Shown piece by piece: positions 7,728 to 60,661 of a stretch of DNA of 64,000 nucleotides; position 1 is the stretch's first letter, and each line of letters starts with the position of its first letter. Position numbers and translations under genes: made by a program. This DNA comes from Candidatus Undinarchaeota archaeon (GTDB lineage Archaea > Undinarchaeota > Undinarchaeia > Undinarchaeales > UBA543), in assembly GCA_964636545.1 (NCBI GenBank), contig CAZWSR010000004.1, forward strand, positions 9,524 through 73,523, read 5' to 3'. The notes under the pieces were generated by a model. That model was not told the origin of the DNA. It was given only the letters and a program-made list of their open reading frames with translations, and ran no database searches.

Positions 7728-8183
7728 ATGGCATATTCAAAAATTAGACAGCACCGTGGCAGAAAGAACTGTGGAGGACACAAGAAAAAGCGCAGGGGTG
7801 CAGGAAACCGTGGAGGTCGTGGAAATGCTGGAATGAGCAAGCATAAATGGACTTGGGTTACAAAAAATAATCCAAAATACTTTTGCAAGCCTAGTATGAA
7901 GCCAAAAATGGACAAGCCACCAGTGCTTAACTTAACTTACATCAGCAAATTAATACTCTCAGAAGATAAAAACGAGTTTGATCTTAGCAAATATAAGATT
8001 CTAGGCAAAGGCAGCATTACCAAAGCAGTTACAGTCAAAGCTCTAAGCTTTTCAAAGCTAGCTGAAGAGAAGATAAAGAAAGCCGGGGGAAAAACAGAAA
8101 CTTTATATGCCCCTAAAACAGAACCTGAGGGAGAGGAAAGGGATCAGGCAGCAGGCAACGGGGATCAGGATAACAAAAGCTGA
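7728..8183 (+). CDS. rpl15: 50S ribosomal protein uL15
   Basis: RGAGNRGGRGNAG, KILGKG, AEEKIKKAGG. Confidence 0.96.
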   Translation: MAYSKIRQHRGRKNCGGHKKKRRGAGNRGGRGNAGMSKHKWTWVTKNNPKYFCKPSMKPKMDKPPVLNLTYISKLILSEDKNEFDLSKYKILGKGSITKAVTVKALSFSKLAEEKIKKAGGKTETLYAPKTEPEGEERDQAAGNGDQDNKS

Positions 8184-8210
8184 TACCCGAAACCCGATAC
8201 CAGATACCTG
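8140..8210. repeat. palindromic heptamer array, class 2 (GGTATCA-like); left arm inside the rpl15 3' end
   Basis: gggatca-ggcagca-ggcaacg-gggatca-gg / loop / c-tgatacc-cgaaacc-cgatacc-agatacc. Confidence 0.8.
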
Positions 8211-19230: not shown

Positions 19231-19355
19231 TGCCGACGGCGTGGATTGAACACACGACCTCCAGATTTCTTAGCGCCGAATAAGTCATTTCCCGCAAGGG
19301 GATCAGCACTCATAACGCATATGAGTCTGGCGCTCTACCGCTGAGCTACGTCGGC
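19231..19355 (-). tRNA. tRNA-Met(CAT), probably elongator, with 53-nt intron (19267-19319)
   Basis: GCCGACG/CGTCGGC acceptor; CCAGA-CT-CAT-A^intron^A-TCTGG; BHB-like pairing at 37/38. Confidence 0.92.
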
Positions 19356-19471: not shown

Positions 19472-20353
19472 ATGAAAGCCCTAATAATCCAAAATCCAAT
19501 GTCTGGAAGAAGCAATGAATTTGATACTTCAGTAAAAGATATTTTCAAAAAAGCCAACATCAAAATTGAAATAAAACAAACAATAGCAAAAGGAGATGGC
19601 ACGAATCTTGCAAAATCTGCAATTGGAAAGTATGATATTGTTATTGCTGCTGGCGGCGATGGAACAGTTAATGAAGTAATTAATGGGATTATTGGAAAAA
19701 GCATAAAGCTTGGAATCCTGCCTCTTGGTACTGAAAATTCGGTTTCTAAAGAGCTTGGAATTCCTGAAAACTGTAAATCAGCTGCAAGAATTATTGCAAA
19801 AGGAAATTCAATTAAATTTGATATTGGTTCACTTGAAAACGAAGCAGGAAAACGTTATTTTGCATTAGTTGCTGGTGTTGGATTTGATGCAGCAATTGCT
19901 TCAGACTTAACTCCTCACTTGAAAAAAATGCTTCATGGTGCAGCATATCTTCTTGAAGGCCTAAAAGAACTAGTAGAATACAAAAAACACAAAATGATTG
20001 TGGTACTTGATGATAATGAAGAGCTTGAAGGCTATTTTGCAATTATTGGAAATGTGAAATATTATGGAATGGGTTTGGAAATGACACCAGAAGCAGACCC
20101 AACATCAGGCCAACTTGACTTAATCCTTTTCAAAAAAGAGAATGTTTTTGAGATGTTAGAATACGGAGTTCATGCACTTTTACATAATATTGACAAATTT
20201 AAGGATGTAGAATACAGGAAATTCAAAAAAGCAGTTATTGATTCAGAAGGAGACGTGCTTGTACATGCTGATTGTGAACTTTCTGGTGGAACCCCAGCAA
20301 CTTTCCAAGTGCATGAAAATGCAATTGAAGTATTTTATAAAAAAATACAGTAA
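19472..20353 (+). CDS. diacylglycerol kinase family lipid kinase (YegS/DagK-like)
   Basis: NPMSG, AAGGDGTVNEVING, LPLGTEN, GVGFDA, GNVKYYG. Confidence 0.92.
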   Translation: MKALIIQNPMSGRSNEFDTSVKDIFKKANIKIEIKQTIAKGDGTNLAKSAIGKYDIVIAAGGDGTVNEVINGIIGKSIKLGILPLGTENSVSKELGIPENCKSAARIIAKGNSIKFDIGSLENEAGKRYFALVAGVGFDAAIASDLTPHLKKMLHGAAYLLEGLKELVEYKKHKMIVVLDDNEELEGYFAIIGNVKYYGMGLEMTPEADPTSGQLDLILFKKENVFEMLEYGVHALLHNIDKFKDVEYRKFKKAVIDSEGDVLVHADCELSGGTPATFQVHENAIEVFYKKIQ

Positions 20354-20386
20354 GGGTTATTGGTTTTTCGTAGTTAGTTATTCGTA
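20354..20386. repeat. class 1 heptamer array, left arm of four-helix-bundle cassette
   Basis: gggttat-tggtttt-tcgtagt-tagttat-tcgta, starting immediately after the dagK-like stop. Confidence 0.8.
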
Positions 20387-20441
20387 GATAAACTCACTTG
20401 AGTTAACAAAAGTTTATTAACACTTAAGCAATCGAGCACAT

Positions 20442-20795
20442 ATGCAAGATTTTACAAAACTAGAAATTTATCAAGAAGCACAGACATTAGCATTAGACAT
20501 CTATACTATTACAAAGAAATTTCCAGGAGATGAACGATTTGGAATGGTTCAACAGTTAAAAAGAGCTAGTACTTCAATAGGTGCAAATATTTCAGAAGGT
20601 GCAGGACGTTCTAGTAATAAAGATTTTTCTAGATTTTTATTTAATTCAGTTGGTTCTTTAAATGAGCTTCTTCATTTTTTGATGCTTGCTCATAAATTAA
20701 AGTATATAACTACTGGAGAATGGGTTATGATTTCTGAAAAAAGCGATAAATTAGGTAGAAAAATTAACAAATTTCTACAATCACTTTCTAGATGA
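20442..20795 (+). CDS. four-helix-bundle protein (23S rRNA IVP / Avd-like family)
   Basis: F.KLEIYQ, FP.DERFG...Q.KRAS.SI.ANI.EG.GR, FL..S.GSL.E. Confidence 0.93.
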   Translation: MQDFTKLEIYQEAQTLALDIYTITKKFPGDERFGMVQQLKRASTSIGANISEGAGRSSNKDFSRFLFNSVGSLNELLHFLMLAHKLKYITTGEWVMISEKSDKLGRKINKFLQSLSR

Positions 20796-20800
20796 TTTAT

Positions 20801-20833
20801 TACGAAAAACGAAAGACAAAAAACCAATAACAA
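20801..20833. repeat. class 1 heptamer array, right (inverted) arm of four-helix-bundle cassette
   Basis: tacga-aaaacga-aagacaa-aaaacca-ataacaa, in-register reverse complement of 20354-20386. Confidence 0.8.
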
Positions 20834-20872
20834 ATACTAACCTTTTTAAACACAAAATAACTAACCCAAATC

Positions 20873-21943
20873 ATGTCAAAATTTAAGAATTGGATAATGA
20901 GTGGGTTTGGAGTTTTAGTTCTTGGACTTTTCTTGAATTTCTTGCGTGGTAGTGGTTTTACAGGAGTTTTGAAAAATGCTAATTATTATTTAATGATGTG
21001 GGTCGTGATTCTAAATCTAGTTGTTGTTGCAATCTGGACCTGGCGATGGGACATTGTTCTTAGGGAAATGGGTTACAAACTCAATTACTTTTATCTTTAT
21101 GTTGCTACAATTATTGGAAACTTTGGAGATACAATAAGTCCTGGAGCAAGAATGGGTGGAGAGCCATTCCGTGCATATTATGTTGAAAAAAAGCATAAGG
21201 AAGTTAAAGTTGATGATCTTGCAGCATCGCTTGTTCTTGAAAAGATGTACAACACCACGGTTTTCTTTGCAATAACTGCAATTTCAATAATTTACATTCT
21301 TTTAAAATACACATTTTCAATAAAACTACATGTGCCCTTGTTAATCATTTTAGTTCTTGGTAGTGGAATGATGGCAGGAATCTTTTACTTAATGTTTAAA
21401 ACAAAAAAAGGAATAGCTGCATTTGAGAGATTAATGCATTGGATTTTAGAAAAATTATCACATACTCATTTTTGGAAATATTTTGAAAAGAAACATATGA
21501 GTAAAAAGAAAGTAGAAGCAATCTTTGACAAACACATTAGAAAATTCTTCCAGGACATTGGAAAATTCAGTAGAGGGGGTGGTTTGTGGACAAAAGGTGC
21601 GTTAAATGCAGTATTGTATTGGATAGCACTTTATTTACAAGCATACTTGTGTTTCCTTGCAATAGGGAGTAACATCAGTTTTGCAGCAGTTGTTGCTATT
21701 ATTTCAATTTCAAATATGGCTGGAGCAGTTACTTTATTACCAAGTGGATTGGGAATTGTTGAAATAATCCAAACATCACTTTCAATGTTATTCGGTGTTG
21801 CACTTGCAGAAGCAGGAGCAGCAATCCTACTTCTAAGAGGAAATTACTACTTGTTTGGAATAATATTTGGATATGTTGTAATGCTAATTGCAACACAAGG
21901 TAGAGGGCATAAAGAAATTAAAAAGCATACGCAAGAAGAATAA
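20873..21943 (+). CDS. LPG-synthase TM / UPF0104 flippase-like membrane protein
   Basis: RW..VL, P.ARMGGEPFRAY, PSGLGIVE; polytopic. Confidence 0.85.
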   Translation: MSKFKNWIMSGFGVLVLGLFLNFLRGSGFTGVLKNANYYLMMWVVILNLVVVAIWTWRWDIVLREMGYKLNYFYLYVATIIGNFGDTISPGARMGGEPFRAYYVEKKHKEVKVDDLAASLVLEKMYNTTVFFAITAISIIYILLKYTFSIKLHVPLLIILVLGSGMMAGIFYLMFKTKKGIAAFERLMHWILEKLSHTHFWKYFEKKHMSKKKVEAIFDKHIRKFFQDIGKFSRGGGLWTKGALNAVLYWIALYLQAYLCFLAIGSNISFAAVVAIISISNMAGAVTLLPSGLGIVEIIQTSLSMLFGVALAEAGAAILLLRGNYYLFGIIFGYVVMLIATQGRGHKEIKKHTQEE

Positions 21944-21946
21944 AAG

Positions 21947-22049
21947 TGGTCCCCTCTCCGAGATTTGAACTTGGAACCTTCCGGTTTCTATACAAGCAAT
22001 TGCTTGCATCGTTCTACAGCCGGACACTCTACCGTTGAGCTAAGAGGGG
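21947..22049 (-). tRNA. tRNA-Tyr(GTA) with 28-nt intron (21986-22013), CCA encoded
   Basis: C1-G72 acceptor CCCCTCT/AGAGGGG; TCCGG-CT-GTA-G^intron^A-CCGGA; canonical BHB possible. Confidence 0.93.
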
Positions 22050-22097
22050 TATCAAATAAATCAGGATAGGAGATTATAAGCTTTTTGATTAAAGTTT

Positions 22098-22163
22098 TTG
22101 TAATTCGTTATTGGTTTTTTGTTATTCGTTTACGAACTACAAAGAACAAACAACCAATAACTA
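22098..22163. repeat. palindromic heptamer array, class 1 (empty form)
   Basis: ttgtaat-tcgttat-tggtttt-ttgttat-tcgt-TT-acga-actacaa-agaacaa-acaacca-ataacta. Confidence 0.85.
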
Positions 22164-22202
22164 AAGATAACATATAAAAACACCAAATACCTACTGCGAT
22201 TA

Positions 22203-23927: not shown

Positions 23928-24658
23928 ATTTTTCTAGCAAATATTAGAAATGCAGTGTGACCAATAGGTGCAGTTCTAGGTCTTGACATATCGCCACCAG
24001 CTTCCCAAATACGCTCGATTATTTCTCGAACCATAATATTACTGAATTTTGTTAAAGAGTTCTTGAATTTAACAACTTGTTCAACTGTTGGGCAATAACC
24101 AACAATAAAACCACCAGGCTTCAAGGCCTTGTAAGCTCCCGGAACAGCTGATGCAGGTGCACCCATATCAAGCATAACAATATCTACTTCTTTTTCTTTA
24201 ATCCCTTTTGTAACATCTGCATTCTTTAAATCAACATTAGTTACTCCACAGCGATCCAAATTTTTCTTTACAATTTCATAAAAATCTTTGCGAATTTCGT
24301 AAGTATGTACTTGTTTTACAATTGAACTCATGAAAATAGTCATCGCACCACTGCCACCACCTGCTTCTACAACAACATCTGTCTTGCACATACCCGTGTG
24401 TGCTGCTATAATTCCAGCGTCCTTGAATGTGATTATTTGAGGTGCGCGCTTAATTTTACGCAGTTTGTCAGGTATTCGTGGGATAACGATTGTAAATTCC
24501 TTACCCATATGTGTTTTTACTTTATCACCAGGCTTCAGCTTGCGCATTGCTTTAAGATCAAAATTGCCATACTCTGTACTGAAGGCATCTTCATTTAGAT
24601 AAATAAGATAATTTTTGTGGCCTATTAATTGTACTTGGTCTGTTTTCTTGAAAGTCAT
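23924..24658 (-). CDS. trmI: tRNA (adenine-N1, A57/58) methyltransferase
   Basis: R.PQII..KD, VVEAGGGSGA.T, YEIR.DF, YCPTVEQ, GHTAFL. Confidence 0.92.
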   Translation of the reverse strand: MTFKKTDQVQLIGHKNYLIYLNEDAFSTEYGNFDLKAMRKLKPGDKVKTHMGKEFTIVIPRIPDKLRKIKRAPQIITFKDAGIIAAHTGMCKTDVVVEAGGGSGAMTIFMSSIVKQVHTYEIRKDFYEIVKKNLDRCGVTNVDLKNADVTKGIKEKEVDIVMLDMGAPASAVPGAYKALKPGGFIVGYCPTVEQVVKFKNSLTKFSNIMVREIIERIWEAGGDMSRPRTAPIGHTAFLIFARKI

Positions 24659-24788
24659 GAGAATTAGATAGAGTACACTGTTTATAAGCATTTTCAAGAA
24701 AACCATAAAAACCTACTAAAACATATATTTTCAAGTATATGGATAGCCAATGGAAAAGCTTAAATACACAAATTAGCTCTAAAAGAAG

Positions 24789-24907
24789 GTCTGACGGCCA
24801 TAGCGGAGGGGTTCCACCCGATCCCATTCCGAACTCGGCAGTTAAGCTCTCCAGCGATTTGTTGATTACTGCGTTTTGACGTGGGAAAAACAAGACGCTG
24901 TCAGGCA
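24789..24907 (+). rRNA. rrf: 5S rRNA (stand-alone)
   Basis: ggccatagcgg, cccgatcccattccgaactcggcagttaagc; terminal helix gtctgacggc/gctgtcaggc. Confidence 0.93.
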
Positions 24908-25072
24908 CTTTAATCATGTCCACATCCGCGGAAATTCGAGGTTAAGATTGTTGATTCTAAAGAAATCTGACTAAATTTTAGAAGCATACAAGCAGCCATA
25001 GCTATAGACCTTGCTCTCGATTGGTCATGAAGAACACCCAAATGTCAAAACTTTGGATGTATCATAGGAAAT

Positions 25073-25147
25073 GCCCCGGTAGTGTAGCGGTTATCATACG
25101 ACCCTGTCACGGTCGTGACGCGGGTTCGAGTCCCGTCTGGGGCGCCA
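25073..25147 (+). tRNA. tRNA-Asp(GTC), CCA encoded
   Basis: CGACC-CT-GTC-AC-GGTCG; GCCCCGG/CTGGGGC acceptor. Confidence 0.95.
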
Positions 25148-25149
25148 AT

Positions 25150-25223
25150 GGACCCGTAGCTCAGGCTGGGAGAGCACTTGGCTTTTAACCAAGGGGTCGA
25201 GGGTTCAAATCCCTTCGGGTCCG
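25150..25223 (+). tRNA. tRNA-Lys(TTT)
   Basis: CTTGG-CT-TTT-AA-CCAAG; GGACCCG/CGGGTCC acceptor. Confidence 0.95.
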
Positions 25224-25250
25224 CTCTAATAATCTAAAAAGAGGAGAAAA

Positions 25251-25493
25251 ATGGCAGAAAAGAAAACAACAAAAAAACTAGTACATGACCTTGTGCCAAA
25301 GCACGAGCTTATGAAAGAGGACGAAGTTGAAAAGATTCTAAAAGTGTATGGGATTGCTAAACAGCAATTACCAAGGATATTAAGTAAGGATCCAGCTCTT
25401 GAAGGTCTTGATGCAAACAGGGGCGATGTTGTTCGTATTGAAAGAAAAAGCCCAACTGCTATACTAACAAACTATTACAGGATAGTTATCTGA
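25251..25493 (+). CDS. rpoH: RNA polymerase subunit H (Rpo5)
   Basis: HDLVPKHE, QLPRI...DP, RKSPTA...YYR. Confidence 0.96.
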   Translation: MAEKKTTKKLVHDLVPKHELMKEDEVEKILKVYGIAKQQLPRILSKDPALEGLDANRGDVVRIERKSPTAILTNYYRIVI

Positions 25494-32555: not shown

Positions 32556-32971
32556 TAAAACTCAACACAGACACATTACTATACATCGCTGCATTGGAAA
32601 AAACAAGTGGCACCCGCGTAAAAGATTGTATTGTAACGGATACAGAGATAATATACATAGTTGATGAAGAAAACCTAGGAAAAGCAATAGGAAAAAACGG
32701 ACAGCATGCGAACAAGATAAGAAATGCATTGGGAAAACAGGTTAGAATTATTGGATTTAACGCAGATCCACAAAAATTCACAAGAAATCTGATTGGGTTA
32801 GTTGAACCAAAATCAATAATACTCGAAGAAACAGAGACCGAAAAGCATATAATAGTGGAGTCAGATTACAAAACTCACAGTTCCATCCGAGGGAAGCATG
32901 GCAAGAAGCTTAAAATAGTAAGAGATTTACTCAAACGCCACCATAATGTCGATGATGTCATATTAAAATGA
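32552..32971 (+). CDS. nusA: archaeal NusA (KH domains)
   Basis: [12 protein letters not shown]; position after rpoA2. Confidence 0.9.
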
Positions 32972-33037
32972 ACGTTGTTCGTCTTTAGTAATTCGTTTTT
33001 AGTAAACGAATAACGAACAACCAAAAACAAAAAACGA
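32972..33037. repeat. palindromic heptamer array, class 1 (empty form)
   Basis: acgttgt-tcgtctt-tagtaat-tcgtttt-tagt-AA-acga-ataacga-acaacca-aaaacaa-aaaacga between nusA and rps12. Confidence 0.85.
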
Positions 33038-33056
33038 GGATAAATAGGAAAAACAC

Positions 33057-38740: not shown

Positions 38741-38745
38741 ATTTC

Positions 38746-38816
38746 TAAGATTTTAGAGTTTGGAATTTAGAATTTGGAATCAACTCTAAACTCCAAAATC
38801 TAAACTCTAAATTCTA
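38746..38816. repeat. palindromic heptamer array, class 3 (TTRGART)
   Basis: taagatt-ttagagt-ttggaat-ttagaat-ttggaat-CA-actctaa-actccaa-aatctaa-actctaa-attcta. Confidence 0.85.
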
Positions 38817-38817
38817 C

Positions 38818-39354
38818 CTATTCCCCAATTTTCCCAAACTCATCAAAAATAATCTTACTAGTATCCTTAGCAACTCCAGGGTTTTTGAAAAAGTGCGCTA
38901 TTGTGCCCCTGTATTCTGCTTCAATTTCAAGTTCTTCTGGTGTTTTACTAGCTTCTGGATTGTGTCGTAAGTCAAGCAAAGATCCAGTGTGCATTATAAC
39001 AAACAATAATTTCTCAAGCATTTTGCCTTTAGTGCCTTCGGTTTTTCTGCCAAGACCATTTCTTTTAAAAGTATTTACAAAAGAATTTGCAAGTGTGCGC
39101 AATTTTGCTTCCCGAATTCTTGGAGATTGCTCTGTTTTGTGAAGATGTAATTTGTATTTGACAATTGCAGAATTCAAATTAACTTTAGCTGACTCACTTG
39201 ACTTTTCTAAAACACGAGCAATGTGGTCAGTGATAAGCGGATGCTTGCGCCAATAATTATTACGTTTAACAGCGCCAGTGTATTGCTTAAGATATTGATT
39301 CAGTTCTTTTTTTGCTGGATTTGATATTTGTACTAACCGTCTCACTTTAGGCAC
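38818..39354 (-). CDS. hypothetical protein
   Basis: 178-aa basic ORF with GTG start and a TATA-like element about 25 nt upstream; no recognised motif. Confidence 0.55.
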   Translation of the reverse strand: MPKVRRLVQISNPAKKELNQYLKQYTGAVKRNNYWRKHPLITDHIARVLEKSSESAKVNLNSAIVKYKLHLHKTEQSPRIREAKLRTLANSFVNTFKRNGLGRKTEGTKGKMLEKLLFVIMHTGSLLDLRHNPEASKTPEELEIEAEYRGTIAHFFKNPGVAKDTSKIIFDEFGKIGE

Positions 39355-39407: not shown

Positions 39408-40163
39408 ATGTTTCAAGTAAAACTTTCGCAAGAACATTCAACATTACCAGTAGCAGAGCTTAATGCAGTTATTGAAACCTGCTATCCAGACGAGAATGTT
39501 GTGCTAGAATTTAATGAAAATATAGTAAAGATTACTGGATTGAATGATATTTCTGAATTAAAGAACCGATTAGCTTATGCAATGGAAATTGATGGCGTGG
39601 AACTTGGACAAGGTTTTGATGCAAGGTACTCCAGGAATCGCCCGTTTTCTTATCCAACAACACTTGATCCAAAATTAGCAAGGTGTATGGTTAATTTAGC
39701 ACGACCTCAAACCCCCAACCTCAAACCTCCAACCCCAATCTTTGACCCTTTCTGCGGAACAGGCGGAATACTTTTGGAGGCTGGATTAATGGGTTTCAAG
39801 ACAATTGGAATTGATATTGATGAAAAAATGATTGCTGGTTGCAAGCAGAATTTAGAACATTATGGAGTTAGTGGTTTTGATATTTCAGTTGAAGATTTTT
39901 TCAAAACAAAAAAACAAGGAATAATTGTAACAGATCCACCATATGGCAAAAACACAATTGTATCTGGACAAACGATTGAAGAGTTTTACAATCTGATTTT
40001 GGAAAGATTATACAAAATAACAACTGGAATAAGCTGTATTGGAAGCCCAAATACAATAAATTTAAGTGAAATGGCAAGAAACCAAGGATTTAAAATACTT
40101 GAAGAACATATTGTTTTTGTTAATAAAGACATGAGTAAAAGGATATTGGTATTGGAGAAATGA
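39408..40163 (+). CDS. tRNA (guanine-10-N2) methyltransferase-like (Trm11/TrmG10), THUMP domain apparently missing
   Basis: LSQEH..LP.AE, RPF..P..LDPKLARCMVNLA, DPFCGTGGILLEA, TDPPYG. Confidence 0.82.
   Translation: MFQVKLSQEHSTLPVAELNAVIETCYPDENVVLEFNENIVKITGLNDISELKNRLAYAMEIDGVELGQGFDARYSRNRPFSYPTTLDPKLARCMVNLARPQTPNLKPPTPIFDPFCGTGGILLEAGLMGFKTIGIDIDEKMIAGCKQNLEHYGVSGFDISVEDFFKTKKQGIIVTDPPYGKNTIVSGQTIEEFYNLILERLYKITTGISCIGSPNTINLSEMARNQGFKILEEHIVFVNKDMSKRILVLEK
39704..39738. repeat. in-frame heptamer run inside the trm11-like gene
   Basis: acctcaa-accccca-acctcaa-acctcca-accccaa, encoding PQTPNLKPPTP. Confidence 0.7.
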
Positions 40164-60550: not shown

Positions 60551-60554
60551 AAAA

Positions 60555-60626
60555 ATAGAGTTTAGAATTTAGATTTTAGAATTTAGAGTATATTCTAAAC
60601 TCCAAACTCCAAACTCCAAACTACAA
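60555..60626. repeat. palindromic heptamer array, class 3
   Basis: atagagt-ttagaat-ttagatt-ttagaat-ttagagt-AT-attctaa-actccaa-actccaa-actccaa-actacaa. Confidence 0.88.
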
Positions 60627-60661
60627 ATAAACTTAAATACCACAACTAGCAATACACTACT

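Follow-up and report, generated by a model that had tools for sequence, protein, structure and literature searches.

A four-helix-bundle gene between inverted heptamer arrays in an undinarchaeal genome: a candidate gene-plus-repeat cassette

A stretch of 64,000 nucleotides (nt) from an assembly of a Candidatus Undinarchaeota archaeon (GCA_964636545.1, contig CAZWSR010000004.1, positions 9,524 to 73,523 of the forward strand; the whole stretch is called the window in the following) contains, at 20354–20837, a gene for a small four-helix-bundle protein of the family PF05635, enclosed by two inverted arrays of degenerate heptamers. The best explanation for this region is an accessory, self-contained cassette, i.e., the gene-bearing form of a population of arrays and hairpins which extends over the genome. 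The insert is missing from the corresponding junction in two congeners, and a new observation is that gene-less arrays are abundant, in the sampled genomes, only where the gene family is present. It appears quite possible, although a little short of an even chance, that gene and arrays form a gene-plus-repeat system, in which a probably pentameric protein binds arrays of five heptamers. The source assembly (0.84 Mb, 37% G+C, 39 contigs, 83% complete) represents a DPANN archaeon; the DNA runs which contain the stretch are labelled as seawater, marine and hydrothermal-vent metagenomes.

The cassette and its insertion site

An open reading frame (ORF) at 20442–20795 on the + strand encodes 117 amino acids. 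The protein is a member of the family according to both profiles, with 113.6 bits against PF05635 (cut-off 33.8) and 106.3 bits against TIGR02436 (cut-off 24). The inverted arms comprise 47 nt each (20340–20386 and 20801–20847) and are 74% complementary; the best core without gaps is formed by 20356–20386 and 20801–20831. Counted in 7-nt steps, about five degenerate heptamers are present in each arm of the cassette. A preliminary description, made from the letters of this DNA, had claimed a gene between inverted heptamer-array arms, with its own TATA box and a small palindrome, located between two lipid-related genes. The arrangement was borne out: the palindrome AACTC-ACTT-GAGTT lies between left arm and ATG, the TATA box corresponds to the TATA-like TTTATTAA at 20413–20420, with the ATG 21 nt further on, and the neighbouring genes belong to the DAGK_cat/YegS_C and LPG_synthase_TM families. 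The features in and around the cassette are as follows.

19472–20353, + strand: upstream host gene, diacylglycerol-kinase-like (DAGK_cat and YegS_C); its stop codon TAA (20351–20353) adjoins the insert
20354–20386, + strand: left arm, about five degenerate heptamers, G/T-rich on the + strand
20391–20404, + strand: small palindrome AACTC-N4-GAGTT, kept just 5' of the promoter in archaeal cassettes
20405–20420, + strand: A-rich stretch resembling a B recognition element, and TATA-like box TTTATTAA; putative cassette promoter
20442–20795, + strand: four-helix-bundle gene, PF05635/TIGR02436 (protein family of 23S rRNA intervening sequences, IVS; distant from Avd)
20801–20837, + strand: right arm, about five heptamers, of a class complementary to the left arm
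20835–20837: end of the insert, followed by a second TAA (20838–20840) and then by the host TATA box of the next gene
20873–21943, + strand: downstream host gene, LPG_synthase_TM family; its promoter-like CCTTTTTAAAC is kept in the relatives with an empty site

The insert contains no second ORF of at least 60 amino acids and no transposase. The 117-residue protein did not match the PADLOC models of defence systems, and a literature search for a HEPN link yielded nothing relevant. Since an Rfam scan of the whole window at gathering scores yielded 5S rRNA and tRNAs only, no catalogued RNA family lies over the arms.

Weak similarity exists to Avd, the accessory protein of diversity-generating retroelements (DGR), with 23.6 bits against bAvd (PF22296) and 30 bits against NF033474. 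That an Avd-type accessory protein of such a retroelement is encoded here is nevertheless extremely unlikely; both scores are under the cut-offs (40 for PF22296, 80 for NF033474), the reverse transcriptase family PF00078 was not found in the 83%-complete genome, and the gene is the only ORF of the above size in the insert.

In the predicted RNA fold of 20340–20850 the two arms pair and close the cassette; the energy was −105.1 kcal/mol, compared with −83.6 ± 6.3 in shuffled sequences (z −3.4). Such a fold would be in agreement with an RNA-level intervening element, where an endonuclease would cut the stem which the paired arms form in a read-through transcript, so that the flanking mRNAs are separated and the cassette mRNA is freed; the protein may autoregulate this step. 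A precedent is the IVS of Coxiella, where, according to passages of PMC4990558, RNase III cuts the stem at the first heptamer repeat. Also, many bacterial cassettes are located within operons, directly 3' of stop codons. Still, an element of this type is distinctly improbable in the archaeon. Families of RNase III were not found in the source genome, as far as its 83% completeness allows, and were not over the cut-off in any of 17 related genomes, including all eight with PF05635. In addition, the putative archaeal promoter is situated 3' of the left arm, and the cassette's own transcript would therefore be without this arm. Further evidence against the RNA element is given below, with the hairpins and arms.

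The kinase gene was located in two congeners, and the junction between it and the LPG-synthase gene was compared. In the more distant congener (kinase 76% identical) nothing separates the stop codon TAA from the promoter-like CCTTTTTAAA which belongs to the next gene; the closer one (kinase 89% identical) has TAA-AC-TAA at the junction, and the source genome TAA-[insert ending in AC]-TAA. Because the junction occurs without the insert in two congeners, the insert is a discrete unit (20354–20835/37). The earlier proposal of a unit which exists in a loaded and an empty form is thus supported, and the junction then suggested for a check in relatives, under the name dagK-flippase, is empty in both congeners. 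TAA stands on both sides of the insert, and the sequences at the kinase junction, a single case, are compatible with a 3-bp target duplication and an excision footprint. At the other compared junctions there was no comparable or consistent signal of target duplication; only the kinase junction is suggestive.

Three further comparisons of loaded and empty sites were made among the three congeners. One cassette is present in both relatives and missing from the source genome. For another one, likewise present in both, the source genome keeps only a 19-nt piece of the left arm. The site of the cassette on contig 1 of the source genome is occupied by a solo array of another class in one relative and by a gene-less hairpin of a third class in the other. 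Logan contigs from four DNA runs, each of a different study, covered the cassette as well as three hairpins without differences, and no joint skipping the cassette was found; since contigs drop rare variants, these data are informative on presence only. No RNA run matching the window at 19900–21400 was found among the runs listed.

Cassettes, gene-less arrays and presence of the gene

All four PF05635 genes of the source genome lie between inverted 7-periodic arrays, and the unit class is different for each of them. Of 41 related genomes, 8 contained PF05635, and the same bracket was seen on inspection of the 18 copies found in relatives. The presence of arms in all 22 archaeal cassettes is a judgement by inspection; with automatic arm detection, 10/22 were above the 95th percentile by gapped alignment and 8/22 by sharing of 6-mers. 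Arrays with a lag of 7 nt were found in both flanks of 3/22, this type of detection being insensitive to short, degenerate cassette arms.

A larger set consisted of 80 homologous loci in further genomes, which belong for the most part to bacteria of many phyla; 78 of the loci were usable. A lag-7 array was present in at least one flank at 45 loci, compared with 6 of 672 control windows; lags of 5, 6 and 9 gave no arrays and a lag of 8 gave six. The two flanks of a locus were complementary to each other (score of at least 14) in 46/78 cases versus 2/78 mismatched pairs, and matched in direct orientation at 10/78 loci. By gapped arm alignment, 56/78 loci exceeded the 95th percentile of mismatched pairs, versus 18/390 of the mismatched pairs. 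The enrichment of inverted heptamer arms around homologous genes, which had been suggested as a check, is therefore present. Among the new aspects are the presence of this design in archaea without detected RNase III and the putative promoter of the archaeal cassettes.

That promoter forms part of a module in which the palindrome is followed by an A-rich stretch and then by a TATA-like box. The distance of the module from the gene is fixed, and it was found in 19 of 22 archaeal cassettes. In controls it was present in 22 of 1100 shuffled sequences and at 1 of 78 other loci, that one being itself archaeal. The strict form of the palindrome (AACTC, 4 nt, GAGTT) has five occurrences in the genome, three of them within cassettes. 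When inspected for covariation, four of its five pairs were invariant; the fifth showed two compensated and several unpaired cases. Archaeal promoters have a known general architecture, and on this basis the module may represent a promoter belonging to the cassette, with an operator-like site; the cassette mRNA would be leaderless or near-leaderless.

Two further observations were made outside the window (C followed by a number designates a contig of the source assembly). At C3:68010–68115, AACTC-ACAA-GAGTT and a TATA-like box occur without a four-helix-bundle gene; the site is located 3' of a stop codon and 5' of a small unrelated ORF, short AGCTATA-like units follow, and the copy may be a cassette remnant. 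A second recurrent intergenic motif consists of AACTN, 4 nt and GTGAGTT, followed by a TATTGAGT-like sequence. It was noted at C1:16981, C2:35874, C2:68196, C2:107192, C4:2590, C9:2413 and C10:788, at some sites just 5' of TATA-like boxes.

A side observation on the family was made in the sample of a bacterial order which is considered below. A single-contig genome of 2.4 Mb (G051) contains two PF05635 matches with identical scores (G051:C1:1520320–1520634 and 1736797–1737111), each with one in-frame TAA; these may be duplicate copies, e.g., in repeated operons such as those for rRNA.

Gene-less arrays are numerous in the source genome. A strict threshold yielded 47 arrays with a lag of 7, versus 0–11 at lags of 5, 6 and 8–11; a looser threshold yielded 74, and a segment detector 121, versus 32 each for periods of 6 and 8. 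Of the 74 arrays, 46 are mostly intergenic according to a crude ORF map (88% coding). Four units were present in 51 of the 121 arrays, five in 41, six to seven in 6, and nine to eleven in 12. The units fall into several classes; within each, about five positions are conserved and two vary. A list of gene-less hairpins contained 22 rows, corresponding to 21 distinct hairpins. Their 42 arms had five units in 24 cases, which agrees with the earlier estimate of about five per arm, four in 10 and six to seven in 3, with 5 failures. Of the 22 rows, 12 lie in spacers between tandem genes, 7 between divergent and 3 between convergent genes; contexts of all three kinds would fit insertion wherever it is tolerated. 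The position of 7/22 between divergent genes argues against the RNA-level element, as does the weak predicted RNA folding of the T-rich hairpins (z −1.5 and −2.0, in a range which extends to a strong z of −5.9). The gene-less arrays and hairpins in the window are the following.

22095–22166: hairpin of the same T-rich class as the cassette, 5 + 5 units, loop TT at 22130–22131; between a tRNA gene (− strand) and a Na+/H+ exchanger gene (+ strand)
32970–33039: hairpin of the same T-rich class, 5 + 5 units, loop AA at 33004–33005; flanked by a stop codon and the S12 promoter
38744–38819: hairpin, GGAATTT/GGAGTTT type, z −5.9
60551–60634: hairpin, GGAATTT/AGAGTTT type; one congener has a hairpin of another class with the same boundaries
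8176–8210 (C4:17699–17733): solo heptamer array, GATACC/GAAACC type
39704–39738 (C4:49227–49261): solo heptamer array, CCTCAAA/CCCCAAC type

Hairpins of the class of the cassette with a 2-nt loop, as claimed in the preliminary description, are thus present; the positions given there, 22098 and 32972, correspond to hairpin starts, not to the dyads. For the hairpin at 22095–22166, the right arm had no exact match in the metagenome contigs scanned. A contig of one run (X4) matches the window from 22115 on, i.e., from within the left arm of this hairpin, and is preceded there by about 255 unrelated letters; possible explanations are strain variation, a paralogous hairpin, or branching of the assembly at the repeat. 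A site outside the window, C2:82375–83175, has a pair of GGGTAGT-class arrays in inverted orientation, 749 nt apart. The interval contains a tRNA gene, a solo array which belongs to another class, and a motif with CTCACAA in six copies. This region was considered as a loaded pair and rejected, on account of the tRNA gene and the lack of an ORF inside.

The arrays could be fast-evolving slippage microsatellites, some of them able to form G-quadruplexes (G4), which exist independently of the protein; genes would land or survive in hairpins already there, and the dependence would run from arrays to gene. In parts of PMC4692102, the preferred unit numbers in Xanthomonas and Nostoc are attributed to G4 formation. 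We consider slippage an unlikely explanation. The size of 4–5 units is found here also in T-rich classes which cannot form G4. Lags of 6 and 8 give almost nothing everywhere, and general slippage is therefore not indicated; moreover, inverted pairs of arrays around the gene are the rule.

For a comparison with gene presence, 20–100 kb were sampled from each of 20 related genomes, and a total of 21 archaeal genomes was compared with a stricter detector. At this setting, arrays were present in 6 of 8 PF05635-positive genomes (1.7–14.6 per 100 kb) and in none of 13 PF05635-negative genomes, with about 1.0 Mb in total for the latter. A hand-computed Fisher test gave about 5e-4, a figure by which, due to the kinship of the genomes, the support is overstated. 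For the positive genomes, the numbers of genes and of arrays per 100 kb were: 4 and 8.0, 3 and 6.4, 3 and 3.0, 2 and 5.0, 1 and 1.7, 9 and 14.6, 2 and 0, 1 and 0. In one contrast within a genus, which is independent of the genus of the source genome, a genome with 9 genes had 14.6 arrays per 100 kb, compared with 0 arrays in one with 0 genes. In a bacterial order the gene was over the cut-off in 16/31 genomes. Samples of 200 kb taken away from the genes gave 13 and 5 arrays in two positives; of two negatives, one had 0 arrays in 200 kb and the other a single array in 133 kb. The lack of arrays in 13/13 negative archaea and the counts of 0 and 1 in negative bacteria speak against arrays which arise by slippage without the protein.

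Evolution of arms and unit classes, and a possible mechanism

In class A (13 hairpins), the complementarity of a hairpin's two arms was 19.9 of 24, versus 20.9–21.0 for arms of different hairpins; in class F (6 hairpins) the values were 18.8 and 20.0. Covariation between arms beyond the unit class was not found. As own arms do not exceed cross pairs in complementarity, they represent two independent samples of one unit family, a result which would also be in line with slippage of a degenerate unit. The arms of the cassettes contained 50 G:T and 64 A:C mismatches in 1708 columns from 53 loci, i.e., there was no wobble bias in the sense strand. Because G:T is not preferred over A:C, a sense-RNA stem is not supported. 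Both this and the lack of covariation count against the RNA-level element; together with the lack of RNase III over the cut-off in 17 genomes, they weaken the RNA-processing reading which had been offered at the outset. In the 5' arm G exceeds C at 39/53 loci, and the reverse was found at 8/53.

Unit classes turn over quickly. At one orthologous site, five-unit hairpins are present in the source genome and in the distant congener, with the same boundaries and different unit classes, and each class is that of a cassette in the respective genome; the close congener is empty at this site. Two more shared sites have hairpins of related or unrelated classes, and five sites are occupied in the source genome only. 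Such changes of class at orthologous sites would be compatible with slippage as well. Among 160 gene-less arrays, 49 matched best a cassette of their own genome; following shuffling of the genome labels the mean was 32.6 and the maximum 42, and 49 was reached in 0 of 2000 shuffles. Sharing of classes with resident cassettes is thus real but partial.

Nesting was noted in one congener (G001). Right arms of the GGCGTTA class in this genome (L008, L109:7210–7304, L113) repeatedly have CTCAAAA/CTCAAAC-type units inserted as a run; one class of arrays is therefore nested in another.

The closest solved relatives of the protein, 2gsc (E 2.2e-16) and 2rld (E 9.4e-7), have five chains per entry each, and by similarity the protein is probably pentameric. 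These structures fit the earlier idea of one subunit per heptamer, as far as homology can indicate. In the gene-plus-repeat system which we tentatively favour, each subunit of the pentamer would recognise one heptamer in a run of five, and the substrate would be a single-stranded nucleic acid or an extruded hairpin. Units could be gained, lost and rewritten at intergenic sites, and gene and arrays would propagate themselves, with a logic similar to that of repetitive extragenic palindromes (REP), their hairpin doublets (REPIN) and the REP-associated tyrosine transposases (RAYT). The cassette could be regarded as a counterpart of the ORF-bearing 23S rRNA IVS which is outside rRNA and independent of RNase III. 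Architecture, empty sites, co-occurrence of arrays and gene, unit number and turnover are direct observations; from these and from homology we infer pentamer formation, binding of arrays, the mode of spread of copies and use of the promoter.

Several points weigh against such a system. Two positive genomes, with 2 genes and 1 gene, had 0 arrays in their samples. The former, a congener sampled over 100 kb, has array-like matches elsewhere; its lack of arrays in the sample would be in agreement with slippage. One negative genome contains one real heptamer hairpin at the looser threshold. The co-occurrence fits a gene which makes or maintains arrays equally as a gene which persists only where arrays exist, and related genomes are non-independent samples. 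Copies within a class are not faithful to a master element, and the order of units varies. As many arrays (49/160) match best a cassette of another genome as match one of their own, and 62/160 match none. The types GGAATTT, GGTTTGR and GGYAGTR are abundant, yet they have no matching cassette in the 83%-complete assembly; these three classes speak in favour of slippage as well. The protein is without a recognisable catalytic domain, and a mover would therefore have to come from elsewhere, for instance from the host. Finally, "five for a pentamer" is inexact, since the mode in the segment count is 4–5 units and a preference for four has been reported for Xanthomonas (PMC4692102).

The function of the PF05635 "IVS protein", the 23S rRNA IVS and the heptamer repeats of cyanobacteria, Xanthomonas, Beggiatoaceae and others have long been unexplained. 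If it is true that the protein binds five-heptamer arrays, protein, IVS and heptamer repeats would become one testable system. To this the archaeal case would add a design free of RNase III, a putative promoter of its own and gene-less arrays which follow, in the sampled genomes, the presence of the gene.

Comparison with known systems, and minor observations

Several known elements share features with the cassette. According to passages of PMC4990558, the helix-45 IVS of Coxiella burnetii has an ORF for S23p and tandem heptamers in its stem, is cleaved by RNase III at the first of these repeats, and was in the past proposed to be a mobile element. The cassette is similar, to the extent that these passages allow a comparison, in its PF05635-family ORF inside terminal inverted repeats with tandem heptamers and with a predicted closing stem, and also in size (about 430–480 nt) and patchy presence. 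It is different in its location, which is between two protein-coding genes and not inside a 23S rRNA gene, in a host lineage without detectable RNase III, and in having a putative promoter, a conserved palindrome and dozens of accompanying gene-less arrays. Leptospira is a further case of ORF-bearing 23S rRNA IVS.

Among the heptamer simple sequence repeats, the short tandemly repeated repetitive (STRR) sequences of cyanobacteria are one type. The GGGAATC repeats of Xanthomonas were described by Rehm et al. (parts of PMC4692102), with 70–75 convergent inverted pairs per genome and a preference for four units, attributed to G4 formation; the Nostoc repeat is given there as GGGGAYT. MacGregor described TAACTGA repeats in Beggiatoaceae, Cyanobacteria and Bacteroidetes (parts of PMC4679880). 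In the abstract of a preprint on Nostoc (bioRxiv 10.1101/2022.06.06.494920) the partner of the heptamer repeat is called "yet to be identified". The archaeal arrays resemble these repeats, being intergenic, composed of tandem 7-nt units in a small preferred number and often arranged as convergent inverted pairs; unlike those, they belong to several classes per genome, some without G-runs, they are archaeal, and they are tied to the presence of a gene.

The searched passages of the papers on IVS and heptamer repeats contain no link between PF05635 and repeats, and full-text literature searches with family names and heptamer-repeat terms (supplements excluded) yielded no paper linking PF05635 to heptamers outside rRNA. 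The designation as an undescribed element, which had been used for the cassette, should hence be restricted: ORF-bearing rRNA IVS with heptamers (PMC4990558) and inverted heptamer pairs (PMC4692102) are in print, according to the parts of these papers cited above, whereas the heptamer link to PF05635 outside rRNA was not found in the literature searched.

More broadly, PF05635 pentamers might be the missing partner of STRR, GGGAATC and TAACTGA repeats, with one subunit per heptamer and five units per site. Cassettes, rRNA IVS and gene-less hairpins would then be three forms of one RNase III-independent system across Bacteria and Archaea, with arrays written or maintained in trans. This extension is possible, but we regard it as rather doubtful.

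Similarity to REP/REPIN and RAYT consists in a repeat which stands in inverted copies on both sides of the gene and is also dispersed without it, as hairpin doublets, and in repeat classes common to gene flanks and dispersed copies. In contrast to RAYT, a Y1 HUH transposase, the protein is a small four-helix bundle without a known catalytic motif, which matched only PF05635 and bAvd; and in contrast to REP, the repeats are arrays of a degenerate 7-nt unit, without a fixed palindrome and copied unfaithfully. Avd is described, in passages of bioRxiv 10.1101/2023.10.23.563531, as a pentamer "similar to S23 ribosomal proteins" which binds a short stem-loop RNA. Judged from these passages, the likeness extends to a homologous four-helix-bundle fold family with a pentameric, nucleic-acid-binding member; the cassette protein differs by scores below the cut-offs of the Avd models and by a genome without detected reverse transcriptase. 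With miniature inverted-repeat transposable elements the arrays share the form of short intergenic hairpins, presence or absence between close relatives, and one junction which would fit a 3-bp duplication and footprint. They are unlike these elements in having no transposase partner, no consistent target duplication and a body which consists of a variable array.

Two minor observations were made on RNA genes of the window. At the cluster of 5S rRNA and tRNA genes at 24648–25311, word depths were in the hundreds in all four runs, which is probably a pile-up of conserved RNA genes from other organisms; variant contigs with a skip of 159 nt (24911–25071) were also found there. The tRNA matches at 19231–19355 and 21950–22049 (− strand) extend over 125 and 100 nt, compared with a model of 71 positions; since these spans exceed the model, introns are probably present in both tRNAs. 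One of these long matches adjoins the end of the LPG-synthase gene and the hairpin at 22095.

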